Shown: positions 5,431 through 57,608 of the stretch, piece by piece
How positions within the stretch are numbered: the first letter of the stretch is position 1
Layout: each line of letters begins with the position of its first letter
Assembly: GCA_000934665.2 (NCBI GenBank)
Contig: KZ538100.1
Span: 62,001 to 126,000, forward strand
DNA from: Catajapyx aquilonaris
Taxonomy: Eukaryota
Direction: 5' to 3'
Length of the DNA stretch: 64,000 bases
Notes under the pieces: generated by a model
What the model saw: only the letters and a program-made list of their open reading frames with translations
Databases searched by the model: none
Told to the model about the DNA's origin: nothing
Position numbers and translations under genes: made by a program

Positions 5431-6102
5431 GTGAAGATCTGGTTCCAGAACAGGAGAACAAAGTGGAAGAAGCAGGACAACATCAGCAACGCGGAGGCTG
5501 CCGAGCACAAGAACCAGGCCATCGGGAAGCAGCCTGGGGAGAAGGGGAAAGGCGAGGGCACCAAGGGCGGGACCGGGGGCAGCACCCCCACCGCCCCTCC
5601 GGCCTCCGCCCCGATCAGCGCCCCTGGCACCCCAGCGACCAACAACAGCAGCAGCGGGACGACCACACCCGCGTTGAACACGAACGGTGTCGGCGTCGGG
5701 ACTTCCCCGGCGCCATCCTCCGCATCTTCCTCCTCGTCTAAAAGCAGTAAAGGTGGTGGGGACGTCAGTATAAGTGTGGCAGGTGGTGGTGGTGGTGCGA
5801 CGGAGACTAAGGTGGCGAAGAAAGGGTCGCTGGCTGACCTGGTTCTTGACTCTGGTAGCGAGGACCATTCGAACGCGTCCAACATGTTCATGCAGGACGG
5901 GACAGGGTCGGAGTCGGAGCAGTCCTCCGAGGAGCCAGAGACCAGGAGTGGGACGGCCCCAGTGGACTCTAAAGGGTCGCCCCCTCACAGACAGCACCAC
6001 CACCATCCGCATCACCCCGCGCATCACCAACAGCCGCAGCACCACATGGACGGAAGCAGCAAGGACACGGAAAGTGACGCGCCCTTGTCGCCCTCGAGTT
6101 AA
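5431..6102 (+). CDS. NK7: NK7 homeobox gene, terminal coding exon (homeodomain helix 3 and C-terminal tail); upstream exons not found in the window
   Basis: Strong polypyrimidine tract and acceptor (tcttctttttttctcttccttttcctatag|GTG) at 5430. The exon reads VKIWFQNRRTKWKKQDNISNAEAAEHK. The post-homeodomain stretch DNxxNxEAAEHK matches my recollection of NK7-family proteins (NK1/slouch has KWKKQNPG instead). Phase-0 intron before VKIWF is a common homeobox intron position. GC-rich codons run to TAA at 6100-6102. Confidence 0.88.
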   Translation: MKIWFQNRRTKWKKQDNISNAEAAEHKNQAIGKQPGEKGKGEGTKGGTGGSTPTAPPASAPISAPGTPATNNSSSGTTTPALNTNGVGVGTSPAPSSASSSSSKSSKGGGDVSISVAGGGGGATETKVAKKGSLADLVLDSGSEDHSNASNMFMQDGTGSESEQSSEEPETRSGTAPVDSKGSPPHRQHHHHPHHPAHHQQPQHHMDGSSKDTESDAPLSPSS

Positions 6103-6380
6103 CCCCGTGATTCACTCTTCCCTTCCTTTTTCCTTCCATTCTTCATCATCGCCACCCCTTCCAAACGCTTCTTTCCCTTCCGACTGTACATACACACACA
6201 CACAACTATTATATACATTTCGGGGCGTAGCTAAGGCCAGGGGCTTGCCTTCCCTTGGAGGTTATGCTGCTCACGTTCTGGGCCACAGGACAACACTCGT
6301 GGGGCCTTTTATCCGTTTCTGTCTTGTGCTCACTTTCGGCCACGTTCATTTTGCCTGGAACTCTTACATTGCCTGTCTCA

Positions 6381-6386
6381 AATAAA
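6381..6386 (+). terminator. Candidate polyadenylation signal of NK7
   Basis: First AATAAA after the stop codon, ~280 nt downstream. Confidence 0.4.
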
Positions 6387-8397
6387 AAGAGGGAATAATA
6401 AGTTATATAAATTGAAGAGGGACGGCCATCAAATCTCAATTTGTGGCATTTTCTGAACGACCCAGAATAATTATCAGTAATCGAGAAAAGGCACAGCTAG
6501 AAAAACCTAGAATGTTTGAATCTTATATTTTGGTGCATTTAAAAATTATTTTTAGCAAATCATTTGTTTGATAAAAACGTTATCCCTAGAGCCTTTCATA
6601 ATTATTCGATTGCTTGAAACAAGCGTACAATTATTTTGTGATAATTTCTTCCCAGTGACATGCAGTATTTCCCCCCATTTTGTTTCATGTCCGATATGGC
6701 GAAAGTTGCTGCGCAGATACAACTTATGACATGTTCGACCCCCCCGGTGAAATGTATGTGCCCGCTAGTGGCTGAAAAATTGAAAAGGTGTGGTCCCTAT
6801 AATAATCTGTAATGGTAAACAATGAGGATCCGGTGAGCCAGCGTGTGCAGCGTAATTGGCTTTAACGCGCACTGTACTTTGACCATCGCATTAATTTTAG
6901 TGCAAAGAGTATAAAAATTTATTTATTGTGGTCTGTACCCAGGTACGTATAAAAATGCCTAATGCCACTAGAGTGGTATCGATACGAGTACATAAAAGTT
7001 ACACACTATAAATGTTTACTTGGTAGCAGTTTACGAGCTGGTAATGAGGTGACAAGGGTACAAAATTTTTATAACCTTACGCTCTTCTCTATAATAAAAT
7101 TTAACGCTAATCTTGTGTATACGTGGACGCAATCGTACCTTCGTCATAAATGCATCGGTATACTTTTCCTTTTCCTTTTATACTCGTACTCGAATCTTAG
7201 CTACCCGTATTTTCAAACCTACTTGTAGAGTTTTTTATGATGAGAATATTAACATAAATCAGAAGTCTATTCTGTAGAGTTTTCATATAAGACTGAGCTT
7301 GTTCGTACTGAAAGGTCAAAGCTGTTCTTTTCCCGCACGCATTAATTTTGCTTGTTTGTTAAAACCGCATCGAGCAAGTGTGCAGTAAAGACGAGTATTG
7401 TTTGGCTTAATTAGACGAATGTACTCGACCTTATGGGCACATTGCAGTTGCGGCTTTTGCAGCAGAGAGTGCGCCGCAGTTACGTGCTCTTATTAGAATG
7501 AATTCCCTGCCAGCTTGAGCGAAAAGGAGTGCTGTGAGAAATGTTTGTGCGACCCTATTTGATTAGCAAGATGGCTTTGGTTTTGATCATAATTAGTGGT
7601 GGACGACCCAACACGTGCAATTTCCATAATGAATGGGGAGGGGTTCGCATATAAAGGGGGCGGTTGGCGCAAGAGACGTTGAAGAACAATCCTCTCTCTC
7701 TCTCCCTCTCTGTCTATTCTCTCTATTATATGATGGGGCTTTGCTCCTCCCAAGCCTCCAAACACCAGACGCAGATATATCGAAACGGATAGGGAGGAAG
7801 GACAGTAATTAAATGCGGGGCCTGCCCTTGCATCACACAGCCCAGCAAAGCAGCCTTCATATTTCGAGGGGGGATGGGCATTCATTCCCACCCGAATGTA
7901 ATTACAGCAGAAACGTGATTAGCAGGTAATTACCCCCCATGCCATTGCTTGTCTTCCGACTTCATATTTTTTTTTGAAACAAATTTCGGGCCGAGCTTTT
8001 TGAGCCACCCTGTAGCTTCCTCTGCATTTTTTTCCCCCACCGTTGGATGGTAAAGGGCAGGATGTAATATTGGGCTGGAAATAATCACGATTCACGACGT
8101 TTCCATAGCCTGAGTAAATTAAAATGAGGAAGAACTCGGGATATGAGAGAGAGAGAAACGCGTCGGAATTTAGTTAGCCGTTGCCTGGGCGCTCTCTAAT
8201 AAAGTAGATTAATAGCACTTTTTAAAACCGCTGTATCCCCCTTTTAATAGAGGCATAACCAAAGTCAACTTGCCTTCAGCTAGAGCCCGTCAGGGCTGTT
8301 ACAACATTCATAAAAGCACTTTGCCTGTTATGAATATTGAAGATGATTCGGAAAATATTTGGAAAAAGTGTTCTGCAAGGCTTACTCGCCCCCCCCC

Positions 8398-8500
8398 NNN
8401 NNNNNNNNNNNNNNNNNNNNNNNNNNNNNNNNNNNNNNNNNNNNNNNNNNNNNNNNNNNNNNNNNNNNNNNNNNNNNNNNNNNNNNNNNNNNNNNNNNNN
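8398..8500. other. Assembly gap (103 N) flanked on both sides by poly-C
   Basis: N run between C homopolymers. Isolated Ns elsewhere (31086, 32938, 36105-36107, 38274) also fall in G/C runs. Confidence 0.98.
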
Positions 8501-11500
8501 CCCCCCCCCCCCCCAAGTATACATGTGGAGGCAGCATTCTGGAAGGGCTTTTGTGTATTACTTTTGAAACTGTATTTAATCAGACATCATTGGAATTAAA
8601 CCTGGTTGTGTTTACGTTGTAAGGATACACTACGCTGTTTCTCTCAGATGGGTACATTTTTTTTTTTCTTAAAAGAACACGTACATATAAGACGAGCAAG
8701 CGGCGCTTATTAATTATTATCGAATGGTTTTGGACGTAAGGAGTGACGTGTGTGTCTGTGTACCCTTAGCTACGCCCCGAGCAATTATTTGTCCACTATC
8801 ATTTAAAAAAATGGAGAACTCGACGACCAGAAGTACATATTTTATAAATACTCTGTATCATAGGCCACATGGTATAAAATGCCAGAGAGTAGAGCTTAAT
8901 AAGGCGAAGAAGAAGAAGAGTCACTCGGCCAAGTCCTTGCCCTGTGAAGTAGTCAACAATTTACTTTCTTAGTGCAATGATGGTGTGTAAAATAATCTCC
9001 TTCATCTTATTTTTATGAATCTCATTCATCCTGAATCGTCATTTGTAAAACTATTGTCACGTGCGATCATTACAGCGAGAGCAAGAGCTTCTGTGTGCAA
9101 AAAAATAAGAAGAAAAACTAGTGTGCAATGGTTTTTATTTTATATCCTCTCACGAAAGAAAATCTCATTTTTTTTGGAGACCGGAGAGAACTGTGGGGAA
9201 ATGATTTTGAACAAAAAAAATATATGAAGAAAAAGAGCATAACTTTGTATCCCTTATACGTTTCCTCTCCGAGAGAAAAAAAACTGGTAACATCACGTAA
9301 CTCATCCCAAAGCTGATGTTCTCACAACAATGTTGCGTGAAAAATCGTGTAATGTACATAAAATACCTGGTAATAATAAAGAGTTCATCAGCGCAATGTG
9401 GCTTATTACCATGGGCATTTGGCCTGGCTGCATAATTCACATTGCTCACTGTACGTTGTATGCTGGACGTGCATATCAAAGTGAGGGGTTTGGATGGGGG
9501 GAAGCTGCTGGACGATCTATGCACTGTTGGAGCTTCATCATCATCATCATGATCATCATGATGACGATCAGCATGCGCGACCACCGGAGCCGGCTAAAAG
9601 TGAGCCGGTGAATGAGTCCGGCCAACATTTCATAGCAAATTATGGGATCAAGTGCCCCCCACCATCCCCTCCCACATGGACCCCCACCCCCTGCATCCAT
9701 CGCACACTCCAAACTCTTTTTCGCGGGTTTTATCTATCAGCACGGCCCGGGACCAGGGTTTTACACCACACCTGCATTTCACTCTGCAATGCAAACCCAA
9801 TAAAACGCGGCCCCATTTGCACCCGCACCAGCACGAAAAACAACGCAATCTGACGAGTATATTTATCACGCGCTCATCCCAAGCCCAAACCGCACACAAT
9901 TACAATTACTCTAAACACTAAATAATAATGATAATGATAATAATCGATATGCCTAAAAATCGGCTTATTCTCTCTTTCCGTTTGTTTGTCCGTGTTTCTA
10001 CTATCTCTCGCACCACTTGAGAGTGGCAGTAGTGTGCAGAGGGAGGATGCGCCATCTCTGCGTGGAGAAGAGTACTACAAATATTTTGTCTTCATTAAAG
10101 TGAGCTTCATATTTTATATAATATGATTAACACTAGTAGGCTACAAATATAATAAAGAGGATTGGCCTCTTCAGAATGAACAGTATACCCGCAGCACAAA
10201 TTCGGCGTGCCAATAGTGCAGTAATTTAATGTCGTAATGAACTTGCACAAGTGTATCAGGATATGGGTAACAATTGGCCATAATTGTAATCTATCCGGGT
10301 GGGTTGGACAAAAACCGGTCCCGGACATAATGGCTGGTTGTGACCGACTCGGGCGCGAAATTCGCGTTTTCCTCCGTATTAGGCAACAAATCATCGATAA
10401 AAAATAATAACAATCCATTGCGGAATAATTATTAGAGTAATGCACTTAAAACGAGGAGGCTCTTGATTGGTGCTGACGAGAGTTGATTTGGCGTGATGAG
10501 CTATTTGATTCTAATTGCGTCTGTTTCTGAGGAGCGTTTTATAGTTCAACCGGACTGTCAATCCTGTTTGACCGGATACGTACCCCGGCAGCAAAGTTAA
10601 TCGAATGCAATCTGCAGACAGGAGTCGCATGCTTGTCTCCTTGCTATGCGCACTCATTAGTCATTGCAGCTAGTGCTAGTTCACGTGTACCGTTGTGGCT
10701 TAGGGAGTGCGAAAAGATGTCTCGGCATTTCAAACTAATTGCGAGGCTCTGACGTGTACGTGCTGACCTTCATGTTTCTGCGCAGACATTTCTGGTGAGC
10801 TAATCAAACTGATTTGTCTGATTGGACAAGGGTCGTTTCTGACAGCAGTTCGGCAAGAATCGAGCACCGGTTTTCATCAATCAGGTAAGTCCAGCAGGGT
10901 ATTATTGCCTTTTACACCCAAAAAAATGTGTTAGTAAACGGCGTGTATATGGCCGAACATACCTGATTCGATATGAATTCATGGAAGAAGTGGTCCTGCC
11001 ACACCTTGACGGCATTACGCTCGGATTGTGACACGCAACAAGAGTCGAGGGAATTCCTTTATCATCAACGGTAATCAAATTTACGGCACATTGTATATAG
11101 TTTCTTCTCCTCGAGCGTGTCCTGCAAAAATGAAGTTGATTGCTGGGAGCGCATCAAGGATCATGAAACGGTTCGAGATTCCGAGTGATTAACTGTCTCC
11201 TGGCTCTTGAGATCGATATGCCAAACCTGTTTTGGGTCCTAATGACAGCAGAGAATCATGGCTTCCCCACCCCCCATCCTACCCAACACCCCCCAAGCAA
11301 CAGCAAGAGAACCGATCAAGAGCAATGAAAATGTGGCTGGAAGGGGGGGTTCTCTTTTGAGAGCCGAGTTCATTTCCCAGCCTTTGTTCCGAGTAATGCA
11401 GCAACGGCGCCGATCAAAGATGCTGGAAAGCGACACAAAGTTCGAGACAATGCCCCCGACGCCCTAGGTGCCTTCTCTCTTTTTTAAATAGGGTCGAGGG

Positions 11501-14500
11501 TACGCGATAATGGACCCATGCTTCTGCTCAAGATGCACACTTTACATATACACACAGGCCGCCTCAGACTTACAACTCGCAGGAAAAAAAGAGAGGCGCA
11601 TTGTTCTGTCAAGGGGGCGACGAAATGAGATAAAAAGCATTTTGCCGCCTGTTACTCAACTCATCATAGCCACCAGCAAGTGTGCCATCGCTCCAATCAT
11701 CGGAGCAACCAGCTGCAAGGAAGGAACCATACTGTATATCGAGAAAGGGGGGGTCCTTTGTGCCTGCCATGTATATACGCACTGATTTAATCGAATTTTG
11801 ATTCTGGACAAACTTTGGCGCAAACTTGATTCAATAGCTGCTTACATAACGTGACTCGTATTTTCACGACCTTCCTAAACTTAATTTATTAAAGTAACCT
11901 GGTTGTGTACCTAAATTGATTTTAAATTCGAGGCTATCCGACGTGACACCGGCCATACAAAATTGCGCACTTTTGCGCACCAAAAAAGCACAATTTTGCG
12001 GTAATGGGAACAGGCGCAGTTTAAACGCGGGCGCATTTTGCGGACAACCTTCTCTGAGTTCAAGCCTGGAGGGACTCATGACGAGTGATGAAGAGCAGGC
12101 AAATTCCAAGTCCACAGTAATGGAAGCGATAGTTGTTTACCCCCAGCAACCCCAAAATGTTGCTCTTGTCATGGGGGCGTGATTGTTTCCGATTGTTTAA
12201 AAAAAATGAATATCTGGGGAGGATAATCCTCCACTTGAACTGTGTACTTTAGTCGGTGTATCCAACTAAACCCTCCCAGTGGCAGCATTTTGTGTGGGTG
12301 TGCTGGGTTGATGGGGGGTGGGGACGGGTTCCATCATTAACCCGGGCCCTGGGTGTGTGGGCGGGTGGGAGAGCAGCCAGTGCTACACATAACACGCGAA
12401 TGCCATCAAATTATTCCAGGGGCCTGACATCGCATCGCCCCCATCTGTGTGCCTAATCGCATCAGTTTGATAACTGCTTTTGTTTCGTATTATGTCAATC
12501 AACAGAGCAATAACACGCTCCCAGATCTAATTAGCAATCACAATGTCCGCCTCCATACAATGCTGGGCGCAGGGCCAATCCCCGGATTTCCCCCCCACTA
12601 TACTGTTGTTTGCCCCCTCCTGCTCTCTCTCTCGTTATTATTAGCCCCCCCTTTTCTATGCACTTATCTGCTGGACCTCTCTACGTTATTTTTGGCTAGA
12701 TGGGTGGGAGGGTGGATAACGATAACGTCAATTGTGCCCCCCACTTTTTTTTAAGCGAATGAGAGGGGCTACAGGTGTCCTCCCCTGCCCTCCCCTGCCA
12801 GCACTCCATATATGAAAATCTGACATTGTGCAAACTGGAGGTCCACTCTATATTCACAATCCAGTTTACACGCACACGGAGAGCGAGTGGAAAATGTAGT
12901 GTAACCAGCAGTGCTAGCTTGCAGCCTGTTGTTTCAATCGGTTCCGAATGATTCCCTCCACCTGTCATGGCTCCAGTCGAGCAATTATCATAAATCGAGT
13001 CGGCCCCCATAAAATCAGGCAGCGGGAGGTTTGGGGAGGGGGGTGGTATAAGGGGGCAGAAATATCCCCGGACTAGTCGGGCACTTAAACAAGGAGCCAA
13101 TTCCAAAGAGACCCATCATGGAGAGCCAACAAAACTGGAATGGATCCGAACGCCACCTTCCACCCACCCACCTCCCTACCACGGTCCATTGTAGCTGTGA
13201 TTTAATAACACGGGTCCTCGTTATTGCTCGGGGAACTCGGGGAAAAAAGAGACGTAGCTCCTCTCACACATCTCTCTGCCCACACCACTAACTGGTAAAC
13301 AATCGCGATATATACACGCCCCTCGTATTAATTATTATTCAATCCCGAGATTTTAATTGTTTCATCGTGTTATACCGGAAGCGATTTTAAGAGGTACAAG
13401 TCAATTAATCGAACCGCTTTCGGTTTGTTTTATGATCCAGAAAATCTCGAAATATCGGACATCATTTTGCCATTCAAGCCTGGAACACACGAATAGCCCA
13501 AAATGAGGCACGATTGTCAAACCCGTTTTTCGCAACTCAAAAGAACCGGTATAGGAAAACACAGTGTCACTTTCTAGTGTATAATGTTATAAGGGAGCAA
13601 CTTCCATTCAAACCGATTGTGCAACAATGGGCAGATTGAGCTAGATTTGTGCTTTTAGTTGGGCGATGCCTGCTTAATGAGCCTTCTCCAAAAAACCACC
13701 TATAAAATTCACTTTTCCGAGCCTCTCTCCCCAAACTACTCGTGAGTTGTCAGTTTGATCCGCAAATCGCGTGAATAAACCGGCGATGCGACCGCTGCCG
13801 ACGCGATAAATAATCTAGGAGTGCCCGCTCATGTTGTCGGCATGTGATGGGCCTTTGACCTCCACTAGCTATGGCACCACACACACACACAGCCTTCCTC
13901 TCTATATACAGTAACAACATGATGGCATGGTGGTGGCGAGCTGATGGAGAGGGGGGGTTGCTCATTGAAAATGCAATCGGCGGCGTCGATGCTAACGTAA
14001 TTATTTTGTTTATGGCCTACTTTGCACCAGGTATAAAACGCTTGTTAATACAACTCGTTAGGCCTCCGCACCTTCCATTCTCAAACCCCCCCGTGTCTAT
14101 ATTTATCGGGCAAGATCTGCCCTCCTCCTGATGCTTCTTTGGTAGAACATGCAACTGAGGATGAGGAGGGGCCAAAGTTGCAATTTATCTCCCGGGACTG
14201 GGAGTAATTGTATAATTCGCTTATCTTGGAGGCAGGTTTTGGCGAACAAAGTGGGGCTGTAAATCCAGCTGGGGGTCTGCTCTCATGCCTGCCTGATCAT
14301 AAAACGATGGCCAAAAGGTGTTGGGCACATTGCCCGGATCAGCCCTCGCTTGCTTTGCTGCTGGTTCAGACCACTTCTTTCCCCCCTTTTTTCATTATTA
14401 TTCCTCTCTCTTGTCTTTTCGGCATATCCACTTCTGACATCTTGATGCTAATGAGGCAGACCTGCGTAAATCACCTAATCAGATCTAACTGCAGTTTGAG

Positions 14501-17500
14501 AGCCTCAGCTTGCTTGCTTGCTGCTCTCTTTTCAGTCCTGATGATGCAAGCAACCAGTTTTTTTTAAAAAAAGTGGTCCATGCTGTAATTCTTGGGAGGA
14601 AATATCTGGAGAAACTACTGGAACCTGCCTGATATACACTCAGTGACAATGTCAACTCCACGTACGAACTCAGCTTGCGCAATCTTCGGACGATAAAGAG
14701 CAGAAATAAATACTCATTATTCGCACATGATTTCAGTGGATTTGGCTCAAAATAATATGGAGTAAAAAATCACCTCAACTGAGCAGTAACTGACTCAAAG
14801 TGTTATAGGATGTTCCAGATAATTAGAGCCGAAACTTTATTTTGGATAAGTTTTAATAGCCTGCAAAGTTATATCCTGGCATTTTAAGGGGCGTTGTTCT
14901 GCACCTGGATGCTTTCAATTAGTTTATTAAATCTAATATTGTTGGGAAGCAAGCAAGAGAAATTGAATGGCACGGTCAGTTTGGAATAAGTTGATTTTAC
15001 TATACATTAACCGCAAACCTGGCACGCATGAAGCCATGTCAAATGGACTCGAAGCGTTTGTATAATAGCCTATTTATTTATCTGATGTTGTTTTCCGCCT
15101 GCTTTTAAAACTATAACATATCCCCGTCCTTTCCCCCCTTTTCACCAGCTTTTGACTCTGCATCCCCCCCCAGAGCCAGCTTTTGTACAGAGCGTTTTGA
15201 AAAAAATATTGCCACAAAAGGCATAAAATGGGATATTGTTAAACTATATCCCGCCGCATTATTTTTTAACTCGCTTGTCGGGGCTGGACACGCAGCACAC
15301 CCCTGGCCTCTCTTCCATTTTAAACTAGACGCGATAGGCCTACATTATTATTATTGTGTCCAACAACTTTTCCGAGCGGGGGGGAAAAGGGTTGTGTTCA
15401 AATGGGTGCCGCTTGGCTTTTGTCCGCTAACAATGGCGGTCATGCAGCAGCAAAATGGGCCGAAACGGTTGGCAAAAATAATTTAAAAAAAGGAAAATAA
15501 ACTACGAGTATATGCGCAAAATGTGTTGTTACATATATACATACAAACGAGCCGTGTTGTGGACATTTAGCAATTTCCAAAACAAAGCGAACGAAATTGG
15601 AAATGCAGCAATGCGCTCATTTTCAAGTTTTAGACTGTTATATATTTATTAATTATGTTTTGTAAAATACAGTAGAAACTCTGGGATTATCGCATATTCT
15701 AGGTAGTTGCACAGATTTGCAATGCTGGATAATCGCATTAAATCTGGGAAATGGCTATGCAAATAAGCGGGTTCTGCAGTGTAAAGGCGATTGTTTACTA
15801 CTTTAAGCCGGTTGCACCAGGGTTGGATACATTACGAATTTAACGGCTGTTATTTGTTGCATGCAGCCATTCAATAAATATCCTTAGTCGTTTTAAATCC
15901 GAGCATCTGCCGTAAGTGTGAGTTACCACGAAACCATTTTTGCGACGTGTTCGTTAATTAATTAAATCGTTAGGAAATTTGAAGTGGTTTAACTAGTGGC
16001 GTAATAATGCGTGGTTAAAAGATGTTGGGGGCCATCAAACATGATACACCGTCGATGATGATGATCAGAGGAGGAATCCCGACTGGTGTTGAGCGAGCAT
16101 CCCGAAGTGCTTGCATTGACAGCATTGGCACAATTTGGGTTAAGTGGGCAAATTTCCTTTGTAGGCCCCTACCAAATAGTCGACAGGGCTGTTGGGAGCC
16201 GGCGTGATAAATTGCGGTAATGGAGCTGGAAAGTGCTCGCTGCCTGGAATGGGGTGGAGGGGGGAGGTTCTTCCAGGTCTTTGTATTGTTTGGGGCGGCT
16301 CACCATCGTCGTCATCGACTGGAGCTTCCATCTCTGGGCTCAGCAACGCACCATCATCATTCTCTGCAACTCAACTGGTCCGGTGCTTCGCTCTGCCCTC
16401 GGAGCCAGGAAGCTTTTTAACGACCGCCAAACCGAATCAAAAGCCACAAACAAGGTCCTTTTGCGCAAACTTGCTGCAAAAAAAAATATCTGTATTCCGA
16501 GAGGGGGCTACGGTATGCGAAATGACATCCCGATGCTCGGAAAGAGTCAACTCCCCTGAGGCACTTCTGCGCTGCTCACTCAGACTACGCGAAACTCTCT
16601 ACACATTATTACTTCTTTAGGAAGGGAAAAAAATCGGCCCACGCACCGGATCCTTCGTCTTATTTTTTTCTCCTCCTTGATGACAGACGTAGTTTGCCTT
16701 TTGATTTAAGCCAGCTTAGAATGTTGGCTGAATCACCAAGTGGGCCCGGAGTGAGTGTACTTCATGGTCGACGGTCACCCGAAGCTACGCGACTTACATT
16801 TTGATGGCCAGAGTTCAATTACCATAAGGGGAATCCAAAAACATATGAGGCTGATATTCCCGAAGCTTAGTGAAAGCGGATGTAAGTTATAATATAAAAG
16901 AGAGGGCACTTATTTCGATTGGACCAAAATAGGCAAAAATCTCCTTTCAGATTTTGTGAGCATATATGCAAGTATCGTAGAAGACTGGCTGGACTATAGT
17001 ATCCCCGAAATTGTTTATAATATCACGGTTACACCTCTGTTATAATCTGCAACTGTTACAAATTAACTTTGAACATACTGTAATATTATGGTCGACATTT
17101 TATTTCCATTGCCACAGCCATCATAATATCGACACGAATATGGCGTGAACCATGTCGTTCCTCAAAAAGAGGCCGATATGTTATATTGAGAGGTCGAGTG
17201 GTGAAACATTGGATATATCACATGCCAATATCACCCCCTGCTATGTATACTGCAGTAATAGGTGTACGTTAGTAGACCTACTGATGGAAATACATTGCAA
17301 CAACAATAATAGTGTATAATTAGAGAGGAATTGCCCGTATGTTTTGGTACATACGAGTGCAGTAGGTTTAGTAAGATACATCATCTACTAAGTCATATTG
17401 ATAAATTGAAATGTTAATAGAAGACTGAAACTAAAAATCTCATATTACTGGTTGTGCCCAATGTAATATCTTTCATTAAAAATGGAATAATTATGATGAA

Positions 17501-18656
17501 CCTGTATCAGCAAACAATCATAAAACTCGAATGCCGTAGTTGTGTACAGTGAACAATTTACATCTCTACATACTGTGCTATACCAGCTACTTTTAAAAAC
17601 TCTCTTTGAAGCCCACCCAGAGGCTTGTAAAGCCCTCCGGGAAATGAAAATAAAAATAAACCTCTCTTTGAAGGGTTCAATTTCTTTCATGACCATTACG
17701 ATGAAACTTTGAAAATGTAAATTCGTGGCATTGACCCCAGGTTTTTTGCTAATTAGACGACAGATATAAGAAAATATTTGGTGGTTTTTTTCTCATGTAA
17801 CATTATACCGAGATAAAATGCTCGATAGTTTACAAGTCCCGAAGCTTTCTTTATAACTGTAAGATCACTCGATGAAATTTACTAAAATCTCCACAGGACA
17901 TACGGTACTTCAATTATTAATGCAAAGACTTAGCAGTGTCATATCCGCTGAAATATTCATAAATTTGTGTCCAAGTGCCAGCTAAGGGCTACATTTGTAT
18001 GATTATGACAATTTTTCTGAGGTTTCACTGCTATCATTAGTGTTGAGGGAAAGTTGTTCTACACCGCCTTCACTCGAGGAAGAGGAACAAGAAAATAGGA
18101 AGGCACATTCACAGCTCTGGTATAGGTTATTATATAACTCTGTAAACCAATAACTGGCCTGGAATTATTCATCCGTGACAGCAGGCTGTTGTTACACGCT
18201 GGTATAGTAAGCAGAGTTAACTGAGACATTTTTGTTCCTGAATGAGGTTACATTTATCCTCCCAAATAAGTGACTTTCTCCTAACTAAGCTTATATAGAT
18301 TCTCCCGTATAAGTCTGTCGGGTTCCCATATTTCTACAGTATAGTTGTTAGTTAATGCAAATACTGTAACTAAATCGTATAAGGCCGGAAAGCCCATCTT
18401 TATGTGATTTTGTGGGAGGGATTGTCATCAAGCTGATGGGTGGTGGTGGATGGGAGTGGTCCGGCGTATTACATGCTGATGATGCGTATTAGCTTGTAAA
18501 TATGTGGGCAATAGGACGCACTTCGACGATTGGTTCTAAGAAGTCGGGTGGGGGTCGTCATGGAAACTGAGTAGAGCGTGTTGAGGTTTGCTAAAAAGGG
18601 ACCGATCCGCAATGGACAGGCCGCAGTACTGCATCACATCCACTGTCGCCGATTCC

Positions 18657-18663
18657 ATCAGTC
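18657..18663 (+). promoter_or_regulatory. Initiator-like element (ATCAGTC), putative ACP transcription start
   Basis: Matches the arthropod Inr consensus TCAGTY, ~40 nt upstream of the proposed first ATG (18699). Confidence 0.45.
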
Positions 18664-18698
18664 AGCGGAGAGGCACCTCATCGCACCACATCAGAGCA

Positions 18699-18709
18699 AT
18701 GGCAATGGG
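18699..18709 (+). CDS. ACP: ACP precursor, putative coding exon 1 (MAMG...)
   Basis: ATG GCA ATG GG followed by a strong donor GTAAGC at 18710. Splicing to acatcag| (18787) restores the frame into exon 2. The ATG at 18810 is an alternative start. Confidence 0.6.
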
Positions 18710-18787
18710 GTAAGCATGCACACATCACAATCTTAACATTGCACAACAATATTCCTTTCATCGCTTCCATTGTCTACTGCACATCAG

Positions 18788-18869
18788 ATCCCAGCTGAGT
18801 AACACGGGAATGGCGACCTGCTTCTTCTTCCTGATGGTTGTCCTCTCCGGATTCCTCACGTCCGCTCAG
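18788..18869 (+). CDS. ACP: ACP precursor exon 2: signal peptide plus the Gln1 codon of the mature peptide
   Basis: Encodes SQLSNTGMATCFFFLMVVLSGFLTSA-Q: hydrophobic core with small residues at -3/-1 (T-S-A). Ends at donor CAG|GTACTT (18870). Confidence 0.85.
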
Positions 18870-18937
18870 GTACTTGCTCATTGCTCTTCCTTTATACATG
18901 CTGCGGCCAAAAACTGGAGTAATTTTTTTCCTTGCAG

Positions 18938-19048
18938 ACCACCTTCTCCCGCGACTGGATTCCAGGGAAGAGGTCTCACCTGTCCGGAGAATCGTCATGC
19001 GGAGGGTTCGACCCAGAGGTTGCTTCTCAGATCCAGAACCTGGTAGAG
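18938..19048 (+). CDS. ACP: ACP precursor exon 3: mature peptide (Q)TTFSRDWIP, GKR amidation/cleavage site, start of the associated peptide
   Basis: Acceptor tttttttccttgcag| at 18937 closes a 68-bp phase-0 intron. Reads TTFSRDWIPGKRSHLSGESSCGGFDPEVASQIQNLVE, then donor GAG|GTAATG at 19049. QxTFSRDW is the ACP signature (cf. insect pQVTFSRDWNAamide, decapod pQITFSRSWVPQamide). Confidence 0.9.
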
Positions 19049-23811: not shown

Positions 23812-23812
<1 letters not shown>

Positions 23813-26129: not shown

Positions 26130-26134
26130 TTATA

Positions 26135-48300: not shown

Positions 48301-50178
48301 TCTCTGTCTGCTGCCCCGAAAGAGGTATCGCGGGGTTGGGAGTGGGTGGGGAGGAAGAGGCGGGGCAGACACGCCCTTTCTGGTAAACACACTTAAATTA
48401 ACACTGGAGGATGTACTCGATGTCAAATGAGCCAGAGGGGGGGGGGGGGCTGCCTGGAATTTGCGCAGGCGGTTGGCCAACCCCGCACCCAAAACTATGT
48501 GTGCATCACTGCATCACGGACCATCATTATGCTGCTGGCATGCGAAGCATTGTGGGTTGCCTACAATGCAGGGTATCACGAAGCGAATTTATGCGGCACA
48601 ATAATTTCAGTTTACATAATTAATATCTGGACCAAATTAAGGGGCAATTTGTGAACTATTGCAGTCCGTTTGGAACAGAAGCAACAATCACAATAAGTGA
48701 ATGGCATGTCCTGCCATGCATGTAGAAGTGCAACCTTGCATGAGCTGCACTCCTAGGGTAATGGCATAATGCTCTGCAGCACATCTTTTATATGGTATGG
48801 ACGAGTGGGTAAATAGGCAGTTGGTCGCGCGTAAAACAAGGGTGTCAGTTGGCGCCTGGGGGGTTTCATCATAAAAGGTGGGCGCCCCCGGGGTAAATCA
48901 CCCGAGGGATCATGCTTGTCTTAATTCGGGTATATACCTACGCAGATTGCTCGGTTTCATGAAACCATTCTGATGATCGTCAAAATTCCGGAGAGGGGAA
49001 GTGCGCAGCGTTTTAAAAAAATAATTCGAAAATTGTGTCCCGATGACGATAACTCCGTGTTGTTATTGACTCCATTAGTCTGCGCTATATACGGGCTGAG
49101 TGATCGTTTCAGGGTTTGGCGACTCGGGCCATATTCCCGGGCATAAAATCCGGGGAGGGCAACCCAACACCAACACCTTACTCTAATTGCGTTTTATTTA
49201 CACTGCCGCCTGCTGCCTGAGAGGTGCATATGTATGCTATATAGAGAAAGGGTTGTGTATACACAGCACACAATGCCTGCCTTTTTTTCTATCTCTCGCT
49301 CTTGCCCCCAGCAGCACCCCCCCACTTCTAAATAATAAAAAAGCGCATATCCTGTGGATAGGTCGTGACAAATGAGGTGATTTTGAGCGTCCCCAGCGCT
49401 CGCTTCGGGAGCCAGTAGTAGGCCTAATCCGGTTTATCAGTTAGGGTTTTCAAATAGGCTACCCGGGTTGGTTGTAATGAAAGTTTAATGGGGAAAGGCC
49501 CTCCAATAAAACATTATCCGGTCGCCATTTCCTCTCGAAATTTGGTTCCGCCGAGCAATGGCACACATATAGCCCCGGACACCAATAATTAATTTTTTAA
49601 TAGCCATACTGCAATATTTCTACAGTGATTAGGTCTGCACGGAATGGGAGTTTCAGTGAGCAACTGTGGCAGATGGTTTGCTGCTTAGACTATGCTGCCA
49701 TGCTACACACTCTGATATGCTGCTGCTGGCCCTGCTGATGCCGACCGTGGTTATTTTCCATCGGAGGCCACCCTCCCACATTATATATACGTATGTTGAA
49801 TATGCATTTTTTGCCATCAGGAAAAACGTTAGGGTTGCCTGCGGTACATTCCTTTTATTAATATCTGAGCACAAATCCAGTAATTGAGTCTTCAAAAATA
49901 TATGTGCAAAAATGCATATATGCGTGTATGGTTGTGCATGTAGCCTACATATAAGTTACGTTAGCACATGTTATACCGTAATATTAAGATGTACGTGATC
50001 TTATCTTCGTTTGGAGTGTGTGCATCACTGCAGCCGCAGAATTCCAGGTCCAAAACAGTGCTTTCCGAATATTTCTCCTTCACAAAGCGCATGTCAACTG
50101 CACATAATCTCATCTCCACTGCTGCTCCAATTTCGAAGTGTCTTAAACTTATATCCATCAACGAAGGGTGATTATGGT

Positions 50179-50179
<1 letters not shown>

Positions 50180-50254
<75 letters not shown>
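50180..50254. repeat. (TTA)n microsatellite
   Basis: About 25 perfect units. Confidence 0.97.
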
Positions 50255-50255
<1 letters not shown>

Positions 50256-50401
50256 GTAAAATTAATTTTGAAGGGATCATTGTGCTACCGTGTACCGCAG
50301 CACTTTATTGCTGAAAAGTACAAGGCATATGCGTCAGAATAACAACGAAAAAAGCAACACACTAAATCGCTCTATAGAAATAATACGTATATTTGTGTCT
50401 C

Positions 50402-50747
50402 GGGGGAGGCGGAGTGGTGCTGCGGTAACGTATATGCGCTCACGGATGTTAAGGTCCCGGGTTCGATCCCAACCCGGGGACACTCCCTTCATCTCGTGCA
50501 GAGTTCATGAGTCGTCTCTGGCTTCGTCTAGGGTGGAATTTCCTTAGACTAATCCACCCGGGGGAGCTCACAAAACGACCACATTTCAGACAAGGCACTG
50601 CACTTGCACATCTCCTCCTGTCATCCTGCCCGTGGGCCCGGGCGCTTCAATAATAGGGTTCCCAAAGTTGTACCAACGTTAAAATAAAGGCCTGGCTGAA
50701 AACCCCGAGGGGTACGCCTATCACCCAATTAATAATTAATTAATTAA
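50402..50747 (+). mobile_element. Full-length tRNA-derived SINE (~346 bp) with 14-bp target-site duplication
   Basis: tRNA-like head with A box (tggtgctgcgg, ~50415) and B box (ggttcgatccc, ~50460), AT-rich (TAAT)n tail, flanked by the direct repeat tatatttgtgtctc at 50388-50401 and 50748-50761. Confidence 0.9.
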
Positions 50748-51070
50748 TATATTTGTGTCTCCAATCTTTCCCACCACAACATGGCAGCAAAACCCTTAAA
50801 GCCTATATACTGTAGATATGACAACATAATTTTATTATGGAGTGCCGTGAAAGATTTTCGTTAAAAGTGGTTCTCAACAAGGCGACAGAAATGATGGGGC
50901 AGACAATTTATTTGACTGAGCTCTATTATATAGGGGCAGTTGTAAATGAGGGAGCTGACTTATTATTGTGTATTTTTATGCTGTGCATCTGAAAAAGGTG
51001 TTAACTTTGGGGACAGAGTGTATTGAAAATGAGCGAGTTTTGAGGGACTGGAAATAGAGCTTACCTTATA

Positions 51071-51494
51071 CAGGGTGTATCTGAACTCAGTGCCCCGACG
51101 TATATGACTGCCTTCCTAGCCACCAGAGGATTGATTTAAGTATAGGAATCATTATGTTTGGCCGCCGCATTACGGAGATAATTGGCCGCAAACATGAAGT
51201 ACAAAATATCCTGTCGGTTAGGCCACCCATCGAACCCTCCCCCAGTCAGAAGGCTCTGGAAGGTCTGGGGGCGGGACTTTGTTGGGTTGTTGCCCACAGG
51301 TGGTAAGGCCTCTTTGGCTAGTTACACCAGAAAATTCTATTTAAAAGTCAGAAGGAGCGATTAGGCAAAAATCGCTAAAGAGTGTATCTCAGTAATGAGG
51401 CTGCCCAGACATATGACTCCTATACTTAAATCGATCCTCTGGTGGCTAGGAAGGCAGTCATATACGTCGGGGCACTTAGTTCAGATACACCCTG
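51071..51494. mobile_element. Tc1/mariner-type MITE, 424 bp, ~110-bp TIRs, TA target-site duplication
   Basis: ta-CAGGGTGTATCTGAACT.AGTGCCCCGACGTATATGACTGCC ... GGCAGTCATATACGTCGGGGCACT.AGTTCAGATACACCCTG-ta. Confidence 0.92.
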
Positions 51495-53210
51495 TATAGT
51501 CTCAGTGTCAGTGTATATTATGTATAGGATTAGGTGCAAGTTATCGCGCCAACCAAATTCTAGATTTCAATGTAGCCAGGTTCCGTTACATATTGTAACT
51601 AATATTAGTTAGAAGTGCAAGTTTTTTGAAGGCAAGATTAAAGGTCTCTTTTTAAAAATAAATCTGTGGTTTTAAATAAATCACAAGCAGTTAGTTCAAG
51701 AGCAATCAATTTTATAGACCTATACTAACATCAGAAAAAAAGAAAAACAGAAACAAAATGTGCTATTTACAGAGTTTTAAATATTTGTAACCTAAAAAAT
51801 AGGTGTAGCTGACATACGGTATATATTTCAACTGTGGCATGATGAATATATTTTATGGATTTTTATATCACAGAAAAATTGCGGAATGTAATATTTGAAA
51901 TACCTTTACGAGCATGCATTTTTTCCAGTTCTTATTCCTGTGGATTGAGACTCTTCAATTGATTTTTCAGTCGACCCCCCCCCCCCCCAAACCCCATTTT
52001 ATTGGAATATTGACCAATAAAAGATGTTAGTCTACATTCCATGTGCAAAACAACTTCCTTCTATATTTTCTATTTTGTTGCAAAAGTGATGATGGGTCTC
52101 TGTTCAATAAATTTTTGAAGCACTTACAAAATTGTAATGGAAGGAGAACAAATCACACATTAGCATATATGCAGTAGTTACATGGATTCAAACTTGTTTA
52201 CATTTACCACTGACACACAACAGCAGCAACAGCAGTCTATAAGCGATATAATGTGTTCATACATTTTGTAAACAACGTGTTTTAATTTAATATATGATAC
52301 CTATACGTATATGCACTGCTTTAAAAAATTCAGATTCAACCTGTTCGATGGCGATTATGAAATATGCAGGGGGGCTTTCAAATTTGTCACCACTTGCCCT
52401 ATGATGTCATAAAGGAGCCTGTTTTGAAGTTCAGGGACCAGGACTGTGCAGTATACACAATCGCATACTGTAATAGAGCGAGGCAAAGTTCCTCAGAATT
52501 TTGGAAATATCAGTTATATCAGCTTGGCCTCCTGGTTCAATATAGGAATGGAGCAGCGGCCCACCAAAAATGGTATAATTTCGATCGCGATTTCCCTCAA
52601 AAGTTGAGACGCCTACTCAGTTTGTTCATGAAGGAAGCGCCCCTTGAATAGATTCGGTTGAGTTCAGCTGGTAGGCAATATACATTCAGGTTTAACACTC
52701 AATTTTGCATAATAATTTTATTAAAACAGTGTGTGTTTGGAGCTACATAGCCTGCTGTGTGTAATTCCAGGGGATTCAACACGGTGAAACCGTACGCACT
52801 GCTGCAGCGGCGAATAAACTCCGTTCTTGTGACGAATTTCATCACTGAACAGATTTTCATTATGCTACTTTTAATTAATTTTATTACACACTGAAGACTT
52901 TCCATCGGTACTATACCAGAGAAAATTCCGGTAGAGTATATGGTCCGTTTAAACACATGACCATTATATCACAACGATGTAATTTATTGCGCAAGACAGA
53001 TTTTAGGTCTTCAAAAAGGTCCAAGAAGAGTTATTGACCACCCTGTACTATAGAGCCTGTCATATAGGCCTACTCTACAAAGTGAACATCTGAACCATAA
53101 CAACAAAAGTTCAAATATAAATGCGAAGTCAGAAATGATATTTACCCCATATATAGGCCTACTATTTATATATAACAAGTCCTTCCACCGGAGATTGAAG
53201 TTAATAAATC

Positions 53211-53312
53211 AGAAAACTGATGGTGGTGTGCCACCCCCCAAAAAGGGTATTGTTCTCTAGCACGGGGTAAAATAAATAAATAAATAAATACATACATACA
53301 TAAATAAATAAA
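53211..53312 (+). mobile_element. 3' end of a retroposon with (TAAA)n tail, copy 2
   Basis: agaaaactgatggtggtgtgccacccc...cacggggtaaaataaataaa, homologous to 23718-23811. Confidence 0.65.
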
Positions 53313-53689
53313 GAGCAAGAACAATATTGACGAATCAAGTTCTGCTACAGAGTTTCTGAGACATGTTTGAAGATGAAGTGCGGAAAGGCTGGAGGCGCTC
53401 AGTTCCAGAAATACCTGCGGACACCCTGTGGCGTGTGTAATGGCCTCCTGCTTCTTATTGGCGATATAGTATACTATACTTGCTGTGAGTGCATGGCATC
53501 AGTGTGACAGCGACGAGAGTGAGTGAAGTAGGCACAGCAAGAGGAGGTATGGATGGATCTGGTGTGTGATGGTGTGGTGTGGGTGCTGCCCTAGTAATGC
53601 AGTGCTGGGTCCATTGGGCTGGCTCCAATAACAAGCACAAAACAGGCCGTCAAACAGACAATGAGACGGATGTGAGGCGATGGCAGGCC

Positions 53690-54062
53690 CGCGCCGACCA
53701 ATCCCAGGCCGGGTTGGATCCCGCCGCCCTGGCCCCCCTCCGCAGCCAATGGGAGGCGGTGGAGGGTGCAACAGGCTTGGCCCCTGCTCCAATCAAATCC
53801 TCATCAATCCACAGTTTACGCATTCAAGTCTAATCGGCGCCCTCCCCCTTTTTCGGGCCTCCGCTGGGCTATTCCGGCCGGTAAAATGGCCTGAAGGTGT
53901 TCACACTTCGTTAATCTTTGGCTGGTCAGCGCAGGAGGAAGGAAGGCCGCAGTCACACCACACCGTCGCAGGAGTAAGGGTGATCCTCCGCGAGGCAGCT
54001 AGCTGCTGGGGTCTGCATACATACTGGGTGATCCGCGAGTGCTTATTCTGGCCATTCAGTCG
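53690..54062 (+). promoter_or_regulatory. Putative Nkx6 promoter: three CCAAT boxes and an Inr-like TCAGTC
   Basis: CCAAT at ~53698, ~53746 and ~53789; TCAGTC at 54056-54061; GC-rich region directly upstream of coding exon 1. Confidence 0.45.
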
Positions 54063-54365
54063 TCGTCGTCACGTGTGGAGAGAGAGTGTGATATGCGGCA
54101 GAAGCAGAGGCGGGGGCGCCGGTAGCCAGCCTGTGCCTTGCCTGCCACGACGGCCGCCATCAAGGAAGCCCCCGTGGCGGCGGACGACTCCGTGTCGCAG
54201 GGCTCGTCCTTCAGCGGCGGCGGAGGCGACGGAAGCAGCGCCGAGTCCCCCGGGCTGTCCTCCTCCGCCTCGGCCACCTCGGGCACGGTGGCCAGCACCT
54301 CCTACAGCACCACCACGGTCACCTCCTTCGCCGCGGCAGCCGCAGCCGCAGCCGCAGCCGCCGGC

Positions 54366-54680
54366 ATGCTCGAGTTCACCCCTCCACCGACCTCCTCCTC
54401 CGGCGGCGGATCGGCGGCTGTCAGCGCCGCGGCCGCAGCTGCAGCGGCGGCGGCTGCGGCTGCTGGAGGAGGAGGAGGAGGAGGAGGCGGGCAGCCGGGC
54501 CCTGCCTCCAGCCCCATGCTCTCCTTCCTCAACCTCAACATGGACCCGGCCTCCAGGAACAGTGCTTTCGTGCTCGGAAGCCCTCCTCTGGCCGCCCTGC
54601 ACACCATGACCGAGATGAAGTCAGCCGTCTTGGGAGCAGCGGCCGCAGCACAGCACCACCACTACGCCGGACAATCTACA
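54366..54680 (+). CDS. Nkx6: Nkx6/HGTX homeobox gene, first coding exon (start uncertain: ATG 54366, ATG 54516, or a non-AUG start near 54147-54159)
   Basis: Contains [20 protein letters not shown], matching the Nkx6 N-terminal motif (vertebrate Nkx6.1 [20 protein letters not shown]). Poly-Ala and poly-Gly tracts. Phase-0 donor ACA|GTTAGT at 54681, where base composition turns AT-rich. Confidence 0.88.
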
Positions 54681-55497: not shown

Positions 55498-55521
55498 GTA
55501 GTAGTAGTAGTAGTAGTAGTA
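55422..55521. repeat. Compound (ATT)n(AGT)n microsatellite in Nkx6 intron 1
   Basis: Seen directly. Confidence 0.96.
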
Positions 55522-55886
55522 ACTTAGTAGTAACGAAAGGACAGTTGCATTATACACATTATACATAGTTTAAAAAAAATCTGGATATGAATAACGAGAA
55601 AAACAGTTGCGACAATAAGTTGTTGTATAATTATAGACCTATGCGGATCATGGAGTAAGATGTAAAAAAAATTCCCTTAGTCATTGAGTAATGAATTTAG
55701 AATTTGACGCTGAACAATAAAAGGGTGAGCACATATGTTCAAGGTGAGGTAGTATATGTGAGTGTTTTTGAAAATGAAATGGAGCCTGTTACATTTTTAT
55801 TAGGCTACTCCACGCAATGCAAGTCTCTGACAGTCATGAAGACCTAAATTGCTGCGGGGCCTGCATCATGTCATGTTTCTAAACTA

Positions 55887-55938
55887 CAGCAGGGAATATG
55901 CACGAATTACATGTGTAATTTGCGCATATTCCCTGCTG
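55887..55938. repeat. 52-bp near-perfect palindrome flanked by TA (miniature MITE-like)
   Basis: ta-CAGCAGGGAATATGCACGAATTACA tg TGTAATTTGCGCATATTCCCTGCTG-ta. Confidence 0.8.
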
Positions 55939-57217
55939 TATAGTTTACACATGTCATGTACTTGTATATGGCTTCTTCCTCTATGAGCAGTTGTATAGTC
56001 GTGGAAATATCAAAGAACTTTACTAGCTGAATGTATGTTAATGTTACAGTGTAGTTATACGTCGCAGGAATAATGGATGTGCCGTTTGTTAGTGGCGATA
56101 TTTGTAACGGTAACTCATATGAACAAAAGAATAAGCAACCATACAAAATTGATCTGACAAAATGAGTGACAGGCTGTACAAGTATAATCAAGTATAGTAC
56201 ATCAGAAACACACGATTAGGTCTAGCTGCTTATATTTTTATACGTAGACCTGAAGCTCTGCAGCTGTAGTATTTCAAGGGAAATTAAGGCAGGAAGAGCC
56301 CTTGTACAATTATAGGCCTGCTCTGATTACTTCCAGCAGCATGAATCAATTTAAATTCCACATTTGCATTGATTTGTGTGCATCCTTTTTGCCGACGGCA
56401 AAAGCAAGAAAGCAATGAAATAGGCCTAATCCCACTCTGCACTGTAGGCTTTATCTTGTCGCAACTGAGACGCATAGTTGGGGCATAAAGTGCATCTCAA
56501 CAAGTCAATCACAACATTATCGATAGAACCCTGACAGTATATAGTGCACATTATTGCCTTGCAAGAACAACCAGTCAAAGTTGAAACCTTATTATGCTGG
56601 AGCATTTAGAGCCCTTCAGTGTGGTCACCATGAGTAACTTAACCACTGGGTATTACCACAACATTCCCGAGGAACCTCGGGTTACTATATAGCTAGTGGT
56701 AAACTATATATGCCAAATTTAGGGGGCCTAAAGAATAAGTTAAGGAAAACAACACCAATTTTTAAAAAACCGGCCAGTTATTCCGCTATGGAATTTACAA
56801 AAAATAATCTCAATGCTGCAGTGGCTCAACAAGTCATTAATTCAGCATTTTCTTCTCTTTTGTACCCCGCACCTAAATTAGCCCCTTTGTGACTCCCTGG
56901 TTTTGGCGGTCAACAATCGAAATTATTCGTGGTAATTGTTGCTTTCAAGACGAGCCTTAAACAAGTTCAGAACAAGCCAGATGGAGTGCAGGTGTCAAGG
57001 AAAACCTGAGGCCTAATAAAGGCCTATTTTCTGAGAACATGCAATAACAAGGGCAAACTTCTGGCGGCACAACTTTTGGTCAGCCTATATTTGCTGCGAT
57101 TGATTGTAATATTTATTTTTAAGCGTGCATGTGATGTAAGTGTACGAGTAGCAGGAGGCATGTAATAATCTGAATCAGGGCGGCGCTTGTTCCTTCCCGT
57201 TCGGTGCACACCACCAG

Positions 57218-57608
57218 CCGTCGTCAAAGGCGGCGGCGGCGGCGGCGGCTGCAGCGGCGGCGGCTGCGTCCCTGTCGGGCATGTCCCCCCATCACCAGCA
57301 GCACCACCCGCCGTCACTCTCCGGCGGTTCCTCCTCGCCCATCAGCGCGGCCAACCCGCACGGGATAGACCACATCCTGTCCCGGCCCCTGCCCCACGCC
57401 CTGGCCGGGGCAGTGGCCGCAGGGGGAGGCCTGCCCCGGGCATTCAACGTCACCTCTGCCGCCGCCGCTGGGATGTACTTCAACCCTGCAGCATCCCTCG
57501 CCAAGCACCAGACCTCCTTGGCAGACTTCGCCTCCAGGCCAACCCTCTACTGGCCTGGCATTCAGGGGCTCATGGGGAACCCCATGTGGAGGGACAGGCT
57601 CACTGGAA
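57218..57608 (+). CDS. Nkx6: Nkx6/HGTX second coding exon (eh1/TN motif and YWPG motif); homeobox exons presumably downstream of the window
   Basis: Acceptor ...ccaccag| at 57217, in phase 0 with exon 1. Encodes NPHGIDHILSRP (Nkx6 eh1, cf. TPHGINDILSRP) and LYWPGIQGLMGNPMWRDRL (cf. YWPGVMQSPPWRDARL). Phase-1 donor A|GTTAGT at 57609. Confidence 0.9.

Follow-up and report, generated by a model that had tools for sequence, protein, structure and literature searches.

Why should the gene for a small neuropeptide lie between two homeobox genes of the NK cluster? The question is raised by a 64,000-nucleotide stretch of the genome of Catajapyx aquilonaris (contig KZ538100.1, positions 62,001 to 126,000, hereafter the window), in which NK7, an ACP gene of the GnRH superfamily and Nkx6 follow one another in this order, all on the + strand. 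This arrangement had been proposed in an initial annotation made from the letters of the sequence, and it is now borne out by splice sites, database relatives, Pfam profiles and tblastn alignments. ACP is the sole recognisable gene in the 48,263-bp spacer between NK7 and Nkx6 (6103..54365); it starts 12,707 bp past the NK7 stop codon and ends 35,212 bp before the Nkx6 start codon. The answer that we favour, and to which we give about an even chance, sees in ACP a bystander that has been kept within a homeobox regulatory landscape and whose place there is inherited and not recent.

The ACP gene and its predicted product

The ACP gene is modelled with two exons on the + strand. Exon 1 (18810..18869) opens with the ATG at 18810, encodes a 19-residue signal peptide and the Gln that would become pyroglutamate at position 1 of the peptide, and reads MATCFFFLMVVLSGFLTSAQ up to a CAG|GTACTT donor, beyond which the intron continues gtacttg. 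The intron (18870..18937; 68 nt, phase 0), whose splicing is predicted, has a polypyrimidine tract and an AG acceptor, its 3' end being ...ttccttgcag (tttttttccttgcag). Exon 2 (18938..19153) then runs ACC ACC TTC TCC CGC GAC TGG ATT CCA GGG AAG AGG and reads TTFSRDWIPGKRSHLS... from 18938; it encodes TTFSRDWIP, a Gly amidation signal, a Lys-Arg cleavage site and an associated peptide. In the spliced product the leader MATCFFFLMVVLSGFLTSA, as judged by eye, is followed directly by Gln to give QTTFSRDWIP-GKR. The intron divides the mature peptide exactly between the Gln1 and Thr2 codons (phase 0; 18866-18940), and because the acceptor CAG itself reads Gln in frame, an unspliced six-frame translation already displays QTTFSRDW.

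Two options present themselves for the 3' end of the gene: splicing at a GTAATG donor after 19048, which, from its position at 19049, could lead to a third exon, or read-through to the stop codon at 19151-19153, which yields a precursor of 91 amino acids. A third exon downstream of the GTAATG donor was looked for and not found. The Pfam profile Adipokin_hormo (PF06377) matches the ACP reading at 30.1 bits (E 6.8e-7) and the longer reading at 28.2 bits, against a cut-off of 22.9. Searched with its GKR, the QTTFSRDWIP-type motif has a single occurrence in the window, and 300 Markov-1 random windows yielded none.

In published ACP precursors of Polyneoptera the decapeptide abuts the signal peptide and is accompanied by an amidation site and a KR site, the whole measuring 85-109 amino acids; the ancestral ACP peptide is given as pQVTFSRDWNA-amide, with variation mostly at position 2 and in the last two residues (PMC7179676). 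The window gene has in common with insect ACP precursors the signal peptide, the Gln-initial decapeptide directly after it, the Thr-FSRDW core, Gly and KR, and it matches the family profile. Set beside the published peptides pQVTFSRDWNA and pQITFSRDWNA, QTTFSRDWIP carries Thr where these have Val or Ile (position 2) and Ile-Pro where they have Asn-Ala (positions 9-10); relative to ancestral ACP it is changed at position 2 and in the two C-terminal residues and nowhere else. AKHs, which are octa- to decapeptides of the form FSxxW or FTxxW, differ from the window peptide in the core, and Thr-FSRDW also separates ACP from corazonin. The exact string QTTFSRDWIP was not found in the literature searched, to which this ACP sequence variant is new.

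Judged from its sequence, the gene looks complete, with the appearance of an intact neuropeptide gene of the GnRH superfamily, and its product is predicted to be pQTTFSRDWIP-amide, for which an [M+H]+ of 1232.606 is calculated: the signal peptide would be removed, Gln1 cyclised, the Gly-Lys-Arg site cut and the C-terminus amidated. A motif search of the window returned no second GnRH-like motif, and none of corazonin-like, CCAP-like or vasopressin-/vasotocin-like type.

Searches for ACP relatives were less informative. A word-indexed protein search in 'longer' mode gave one candidate and no match, and a full HMMER scan of 1.84 billion representative proteins gave two matches at E 1e-4 to 1e-3, neither of them an ACP relative. 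The first is a TPR-repeat protein (TPR_12/TPR_10) with repeats like RSHLSGESSCGGFDPEVASQIQNLVE and the second is without a Pfam family; both were judged to be chance. Their source is the ACP-associated peptide (18971-19057), in which the stretch RSHLSGESSCGGFDPEVASQIQNLVEVMS resembles a TPR_12/TPR_10 repeat unit, a likeness judged coincidental.

The homeobox genes and the spacer between them

NK7 is represented by an exon at 5431..6102 (+) that carries helix 3 of the homeodomain, the conserved tail KKQDNISNAEAAEHK, a low-complexity C-terminus and an SPSS end before the stop codon at 6100-6102. Its 5' edge at 5431 is marked by a splice acceptor of good match, tttccttttcctatag|GTG, and its translation begins VKIWFQNRRTKWKKQDNISNAEAAEHKNQ, passes through the low-complexity stretch and finishes LSPSS. 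In a six-frame search the helix-3 motif occurs a single time in the whole window, at 5440-5457 (+). Compared with the protein database in 'longer' mode, the exon matched 32 proteins at E <= 0.001. The top matches are a Cryptotermes cluster and a Zootermopsis protein (39% and 36% identity, 73% of the exon aligned), and the insect, springtail, spider and mollusc proteins that rank below them have only the helix-3 region in common.

The automatic names of these matches conflict, among them Hox-A2, Hmx, Nkx-6.1 and unc-4, and the family was assigned from the tail and the closest relatives. The 90% cluster of one match has as members the D. melanogaster proteins 'NK7.1, isoform A' and 'Homeobox protein NK7.1', and the representative of that cluster carries the post-homeodomain tail KKQDNVTNNEAAEHK, which is of the same type as that of the window exon. 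The tail is exactly KKQDNISNAEAAEHK in proteins of termite, mayfly, damselfly and springtail, some of which likewise end in SPSS. The exon shows the NK7-family tail KKQDN(I/V)(S/T)N.EAAEHK and its closest relatives are NK7.1 orthologues; stick-insect Nkx-6.1 gives only a 50% match. Only helix 3 lies within the window, and the Pfam Homeodomain profile, aligned over its positions 45-57, stays below the 22.9 cut-off with 16.3 bits. Nothing in 1-5430 encodes the first 44 residues of the homeodomain, the initial two thirds of the NK7 homeobox, so the preceding intron must exceed 5.4 kb. From these features of the sequence we accept 5431-6102 as the putative last coding exon of NK7.

On the other side of the spacer Nkx6 follows with its first two coding exons. 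In the best model the first (54366..54680, +) reads MLEF...FLNLNMD...LAALHTMTEMKSA and ends at a GTTAGT donor, both start and donor being choices of that model; the second (57299..57608, +) reads NPHGIDHILSRP ... LYWPGIQGLMGNPMWRDRLTG, ends at a GTTAGT donor at 57609 and has a 5' boundary that may fall anywhere within 57218-57346. The position 57608, at which the initial annotation had closed the locus, coincides with the donor position of this model. The sole database match for the block is a Bacillus rossius 'homeobox protein Nkx-6.1' (E 6.5e-13), a name given automatically. By tblastn with the stick-insect Nkx-6.1, 54516-54629 corresponds to residues 153-195 and 57347-57610 to residues 197-296, in two collinear blocks (E 1.3e-19 and 6.7e-8) that include NPHGIDHILSRP and LYWPGIQGLMGNPMWRDRL. 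The N-terminal blocks FLNLN..., NPHGIDHILSRP and YWPG...WRDRL are thus collinear with an annotated Nkx-6.1. No second helix-3 motif was found in the window, nor any tblastn match to stick-insect residues 297-424. The Nkx6 homeobox exons lie beyond base 64000, and the window carries only the first two coding exons of Nkx6 and the last coding exon of NK7. The same hexamer, GTTAGT, stands at both modelled Nkx6 donors (54681 and 57609).

The claim that no other recognisable gene lies between NK7 and Nkx6 also held, within the reach of a screen that is based on open reading frames (ORFs) and that genes of short exons alone could escape. Between 5.77 and 54.6 kb there are 117 ORFs of at least 85 amino acids, out of 175 in the window, and none of the 117 reaches the Pfam cut-off; three give sub-threshold matches, to DRMBL, phospholipase A2 and herpes accessory factor. 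Among the 169 ORFs of 62-84 amino acids between 6.1 and 54.1 kb, the first 150 (up to 48.4 kb) were run on Pfam, where a single one, ACP, passes and one proline-rich match stays below threshold. Rfam gave no match and ARAGORN no tRNA. The phospholipase A2 candidate, a minus-strand ORF at 40584-40883 with CCLRHD, scores 18.2 bits against a cut-off of 32.1 and is probably chance; the Cys that we take to be expected after HD is missing from it.

The window is animal DNA with a GC content of 36-54% per 2-kb bin; its best protein matches, termite for NK7 and stick insect for Nkx6, are to insects. Its repeats are of several kinds. A foldback at 24025-25072 has outer arms of 230 nt that are 96% complementary and nested arms at 24253-24352/24742-24841 and 24379-24488/24607-24716. 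ORFs of its two strands mirror each other, and it is probably a foldback or an element resembling a miniature inverted-repeat transposable element. Further inverted repeats lie at 25334-26440, 25925-26102 and 51067-51498. Perfect or near-perfect microsatellites comprise TAT/ATT/TAA arrays of 21-25 copies (50180-50254, 55422-55497 and 59445-59507), (CTAAC)n at 27077-27179, (GA)34 at 2435-2503 in the NK7 intron and (AG)32 at 59808-59873 downstream of the Nkx6 exons. Close to Polycomb-regulated homeobox genes, GA repeats may be regarded as candidate binding sites for GAGA factor.

Linkage of GnRH-superfamily and NK genes in other animals

The homeobox pair itself is no novelty. NK7 and NK6 stand in tandem in Tribolium, a millipede (Trigoniulus), an onychophoran (Epiperipatus) and a spider (Argiope), an arrangement taken as ancestral (PMC13088399), and in Danaus about 59 kb separate the two (PMC8767184). 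The NK7-NK6 tandem (NK7.1-HGTX) is already an accepted piece of the ancestral NK cluster. The order NK7 then NK6 is alike here, with a spacing of 48 kb as against about 59 kb in Danaus. The difference lies in ACP, which is inside the pair here, whereas the available accounts of the known tandems name no non-homeobox gene within.

A second case of proximity emerges from Drosophila. In a microarray table, the GeneIDs run su(Hw) 41740, RpII15 41741, Crz 41742, pr-set7 41743, spn-B 41746 and NK7.1 41747, and the CG numbers climb in step (RpII15 CG3284, Crz CG3302, pr-set7 CG3307, spn-B CG3325) (PMC4711038, supplement file 7); NK7.1 has been placed at 88B4-6, 3R:14,356,561 (bioRxiv 10.1101/552513). 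Crz and NK7.1 are five GeneIDs apart, and by this order NK7.1 at 88B has a peptide gene of the GnRH superfamily a few genes away, as NK7 has ACP near it here. The genes su(Hw) and RpII15 are, we presume, physical neighbours at 88B; calibration of GeneID order on other gene clusters gave single rows only. If the GeneID reading is right, corazonin is about five genes from NK7.1 in the fly. The fly has about 14,000 genes, and with two peptide genes and two NK targets the chance that Akh or Crz would fall within five genes of NK7.1 or HGTX in random order is about 0.003 by our own arithmetic.

That the fly peptide gene is corazonin follows from the absence of ACP from Drosophila (PMC7179676), which does possess corazonin, the older paralogue. 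The position of Crz near NK7.1 suggests that the ancestor shared by flies and this species already had GnRH-superfamily genes in the vicinity of NK7, and that the two were linked at least in the insect ancestor. We found no paper naming both NK7.1 and Crz and none on linkage of ACP, AKH or Crz with NK7 or NK6, the last of these searches being too loose to show absence. The proximity of Crz to NK7.1 is new here, while the NK7-NK6 pair and the co-location of GnRH and NK genes in vertebrates are already known.

In humans, NKX6-3 maps to 8p11.21, NKX2-6 to 8p21.2 and NKX6-2 to 10q26.3; 2p/8p, 4p, 5q and 10q make up the NKL paralogon (PMC2211742). GnRH genes or their ghosts lie on human chromosomes 8, 20, 10 and 5, and they are assigned with FGFR, PPP2R2 and ADRA1 to chordate linkage group 7 (PMC3969558); the four GnRH paralogons list EBF1-4, DOCK1/2/5, PTPRA/E and NKX2-3/5/6 (PMC3265131). 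These sources confirm the human chromosome facts on which the initial annotation had drawn (NKX6-3 and NKX2-6 on 8p, NKX6-2 on 10q26, and the GnRH loci). Comparison of the published sets leaves chromosomes 5, 8 and 10 common to the GnRH paralogons and the NKL paralogon. In the vertebrate paralogons a GnRH-superfamily gene shares its neighbourhood with NK genes, and NKX6-2 and NKX6-3 are on the same arms; however, the scale is one of megabases and not of kilobases as here, and the NK partners named are of the NK4 family (NKX2-3/5/6). Since the paralogon lists hold NKX2-3/5/6, the vertebrate co-location of GnRH and NK genes is already in print, though for NK4-family genes. In our reading, the vertebrate data place the GnRH and NK families on one ancestral chromosome.

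A different neighbourhood has been claimed as bilaterian-wide for GnRH-superfamily genes, namely the GnRH/CRZ - vasotocin - NPS/CCAP microsynteny of amphioxus, limpet and vertebrates. Its partners are other neuropeptide genes, and the window is without a vasotocin-like or CCAP-like motif.

Age and meaning of the linkage

How might a neuropeptide gene come to be kept between homeobox genes? Most probably ACP is transcribed as a unit of its own and rides as a passenger in the gene-poor 48 kb between NK7 and NK6. By the time of the insect ancestor this end of the NK cluster probably already had GnRH-superfamily peptide genes linked to it, and at the scale of the chromosome the GnRH-NK linkage was probably already present in the bilaterian ancestor. 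The first peptide gene at this place may have been ACP itself or an older array of Crz, AKH and ACP. We infer that the linkage would have been kept according to the 'bystander' model of genomic regulatory blocks, and not by any need of ACP for the NK genes: it would persist because breaks in the spacer would sever the homeobox genes from their long-range enhancers. Of the synteny across distant lineages that this model would predict, what was observed is the fly paralogue Crz near NK7.1, by GeneID order, and a megabase-scale co-location in vertebrates.

The serious rival is lineage-specific arrival, in which ACP or its segment moved into a large gene-poor spacer in this lineage, and the fly and vertebrate proximities reflect coincidence or a shared ancestral chromosome. 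We regard it as a possibility that falls clearly short of even. Large intergenic spacers are large targets, and a number of observations weigh against an inherited place. A GnRH-type gene nested between NK7 and NK6 is so far known from this one species. In the fly, the sole comparison species, the peptide gene is a different paralogue, corazonin, and is separated from NK7.1 by several unrelated genes, pr-set7, spn-B and two more GeneIDs. The argument from the fly also rests on GeneIDs in this range following map order, which is our assumption; Oamb (GeneID 43982 in the same table) is high for its range and, if it is at 92F as we believe, out of map order, so the rule probably has exceptions.

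Other points on the same side come from the literature and from the locus itself. Fly NK6 is on 3L, another arm than NK7.1, and the available account of the 59-kb NK6-NK7 interval of Danaus names no gene inside (PMC8767184), the supplements to that paper containing nothing on NK genes. NK7 has been lost in humans, and NKX6-3 at 8p11 is not beside GNRH1 (PMC2211742). The close neighbours of GnRH, CRZ and AKH genes in the amphioxus and limpet synteny papers, as excerpted, are vasotocin (VT) and NPS and not NK genes; the amphioxus paper has no mention of NKX or homeobox in its text or in two of its three supplement files. Within the window, the join between NK7 and ACP crosses an unbridged gap of Ns and a short repeat at about 9.96-10.06 kb, and the database searches returned no ACP relatives.

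Arrival in this lineage is nevertheless weakened by two features of the locus. The presence of an intron shows that ACP is not a retrocopy. The flanks of the gene are also free of repeats and transposon remnants: the closest inverted repeats begin at 24.0 kb, and no direct-repeat families were found. Furthermore, two independent placements of a three-member family beside NK7 are improbable by chance.

Neuropeptide genes usually carry their own compact promoters, and this counts against a second alternative, functional coupling, in which ACP would draw on the same enhancers or chromatin domain as Nkx6 and/or NK7 and be co-expressed with them in particular neurons. Some published expression data would suit it: NK6 is expressed in the arthropod brain and nerve cord (PMC13088399), a LexA enhancer trap of NK7.1 is described as marking cells of the larval central nervous system, ventral nerve cord and ring-gland complex (bioRxiv 10.1101/552513), and ACP is a brain neuropeptide in the literature. 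The description of the enhancer trap, as far as it is available, is not cell-type specific, and we consider coupling unlikely.

The join between NK7 and ACP deserves attention in its own right, as it could in principle be a scaffolding artefact in which the NK7 exon was wrongly joined to ACP. The '8.4-kb gap' of the initial annotation is real and does fall within this join; 8.4 kb is its location, however, and its size is 103 N (8398..8500), set in a poly-C tract with 8 C before and 14 C after. Contigs from the reads of four runs of one sample, probably that behind the assembly, were examined over 5000-20000. They are unbroken over 5000-8397, end at 8388-8397 and resume at 8501-8519 with loose ends of 11-12 C, and none bridges the gap. 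In all four runs the contigs break again at 9987-10000 and are then unbroken to 20000. A short dispersed repeat of about 64 nt lies at about 9958-10057, where depth rises from about 20-30 to 62-121, about fourfold; several contigs from other parts of the genome match 40-64 nt of it with 1-3 differences.

Although no contig spans 8398-8500 and the contigs also break at the repeat, the C runs on both sides of the gap and the poly-C loose ends fit a homopolymer break within one locus, and NK7 beside NK6 is the expected ancestral order. The assembly sequence between ACP and Nkx6 is continuous save for marks of 1-4 N at 31086, 32937, 36105-36108 and 38274, so the linkage of ACP to Nkx6 is independent of the gap and holds regardless. 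We consider an artefact at the gap or at the repeat near 10.0 kb highly improbable. Just as improbable is that the ACP-like ORF arose by chance or has decayed and is not a working gene, an idea to which the missing database relatives, the unfamiliar string, the two possible 3' ends and a Thr2 and Ile9-Pro10 that are not among the substitutions listed for Polyneoptera in the available text (PMC7179676) would lend themselves, but which is opposed by an intact start codon, hydrophobic leader, Gln, consensus donor and acceptor, Gly-Lys-Arg and open frame, by an FSRDW core identical, with its preceding Thr, to published ACP, by Pfam scores above cut-off in two readings and by the lack of any such motif in the random windows.

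The suggestion of the initial annotation that the linkage may predate the protostome-deuterostome split is supported in part: the human co-location agrees with it, and fly Crz near NK7.1 points to an old linkage within insects, while the close neighbours in amphioxus and limpet, vasotocin and NPS, speak against it. A bolder version would have a GnRH/corazonin-type gene inside the NK cluster beside NK7/NK6 already in the bilaterian ancestor, where the peptide gene might use the homeobox landscape in neurosecretory cells; we consider this a rather doubtful proposition and offer it tentatively. Were it true, ACP between NK7 and NK6, fly corazonin by NK7.1 and GnRH1/2/3 by NKX2-3/5/6 would be descendants marking the same spot, and position relative to NK genes could serve as a synteny anchor with which to settle the orthology of GnRH, AKH, ACP and corazonin.

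Such an anchor would matter because that orthology has been argued mainly from ten-residue peptides and receptor trees; a stable genomic position would supply evidence independent of both, and few landmarks of animal genomes are mapped as well as the NK cluster. If the linkage fails, the locus would amount to a well-preserved NK7-NK6 pair plus a new ACP sequence variant. If it holds across arthropods and beyond, a neuroendocrine family would be tied to the linkage group of the NK cluster, and the locus would provide a clean case of a non-developmental passenger gene kept within a homeobox pair.

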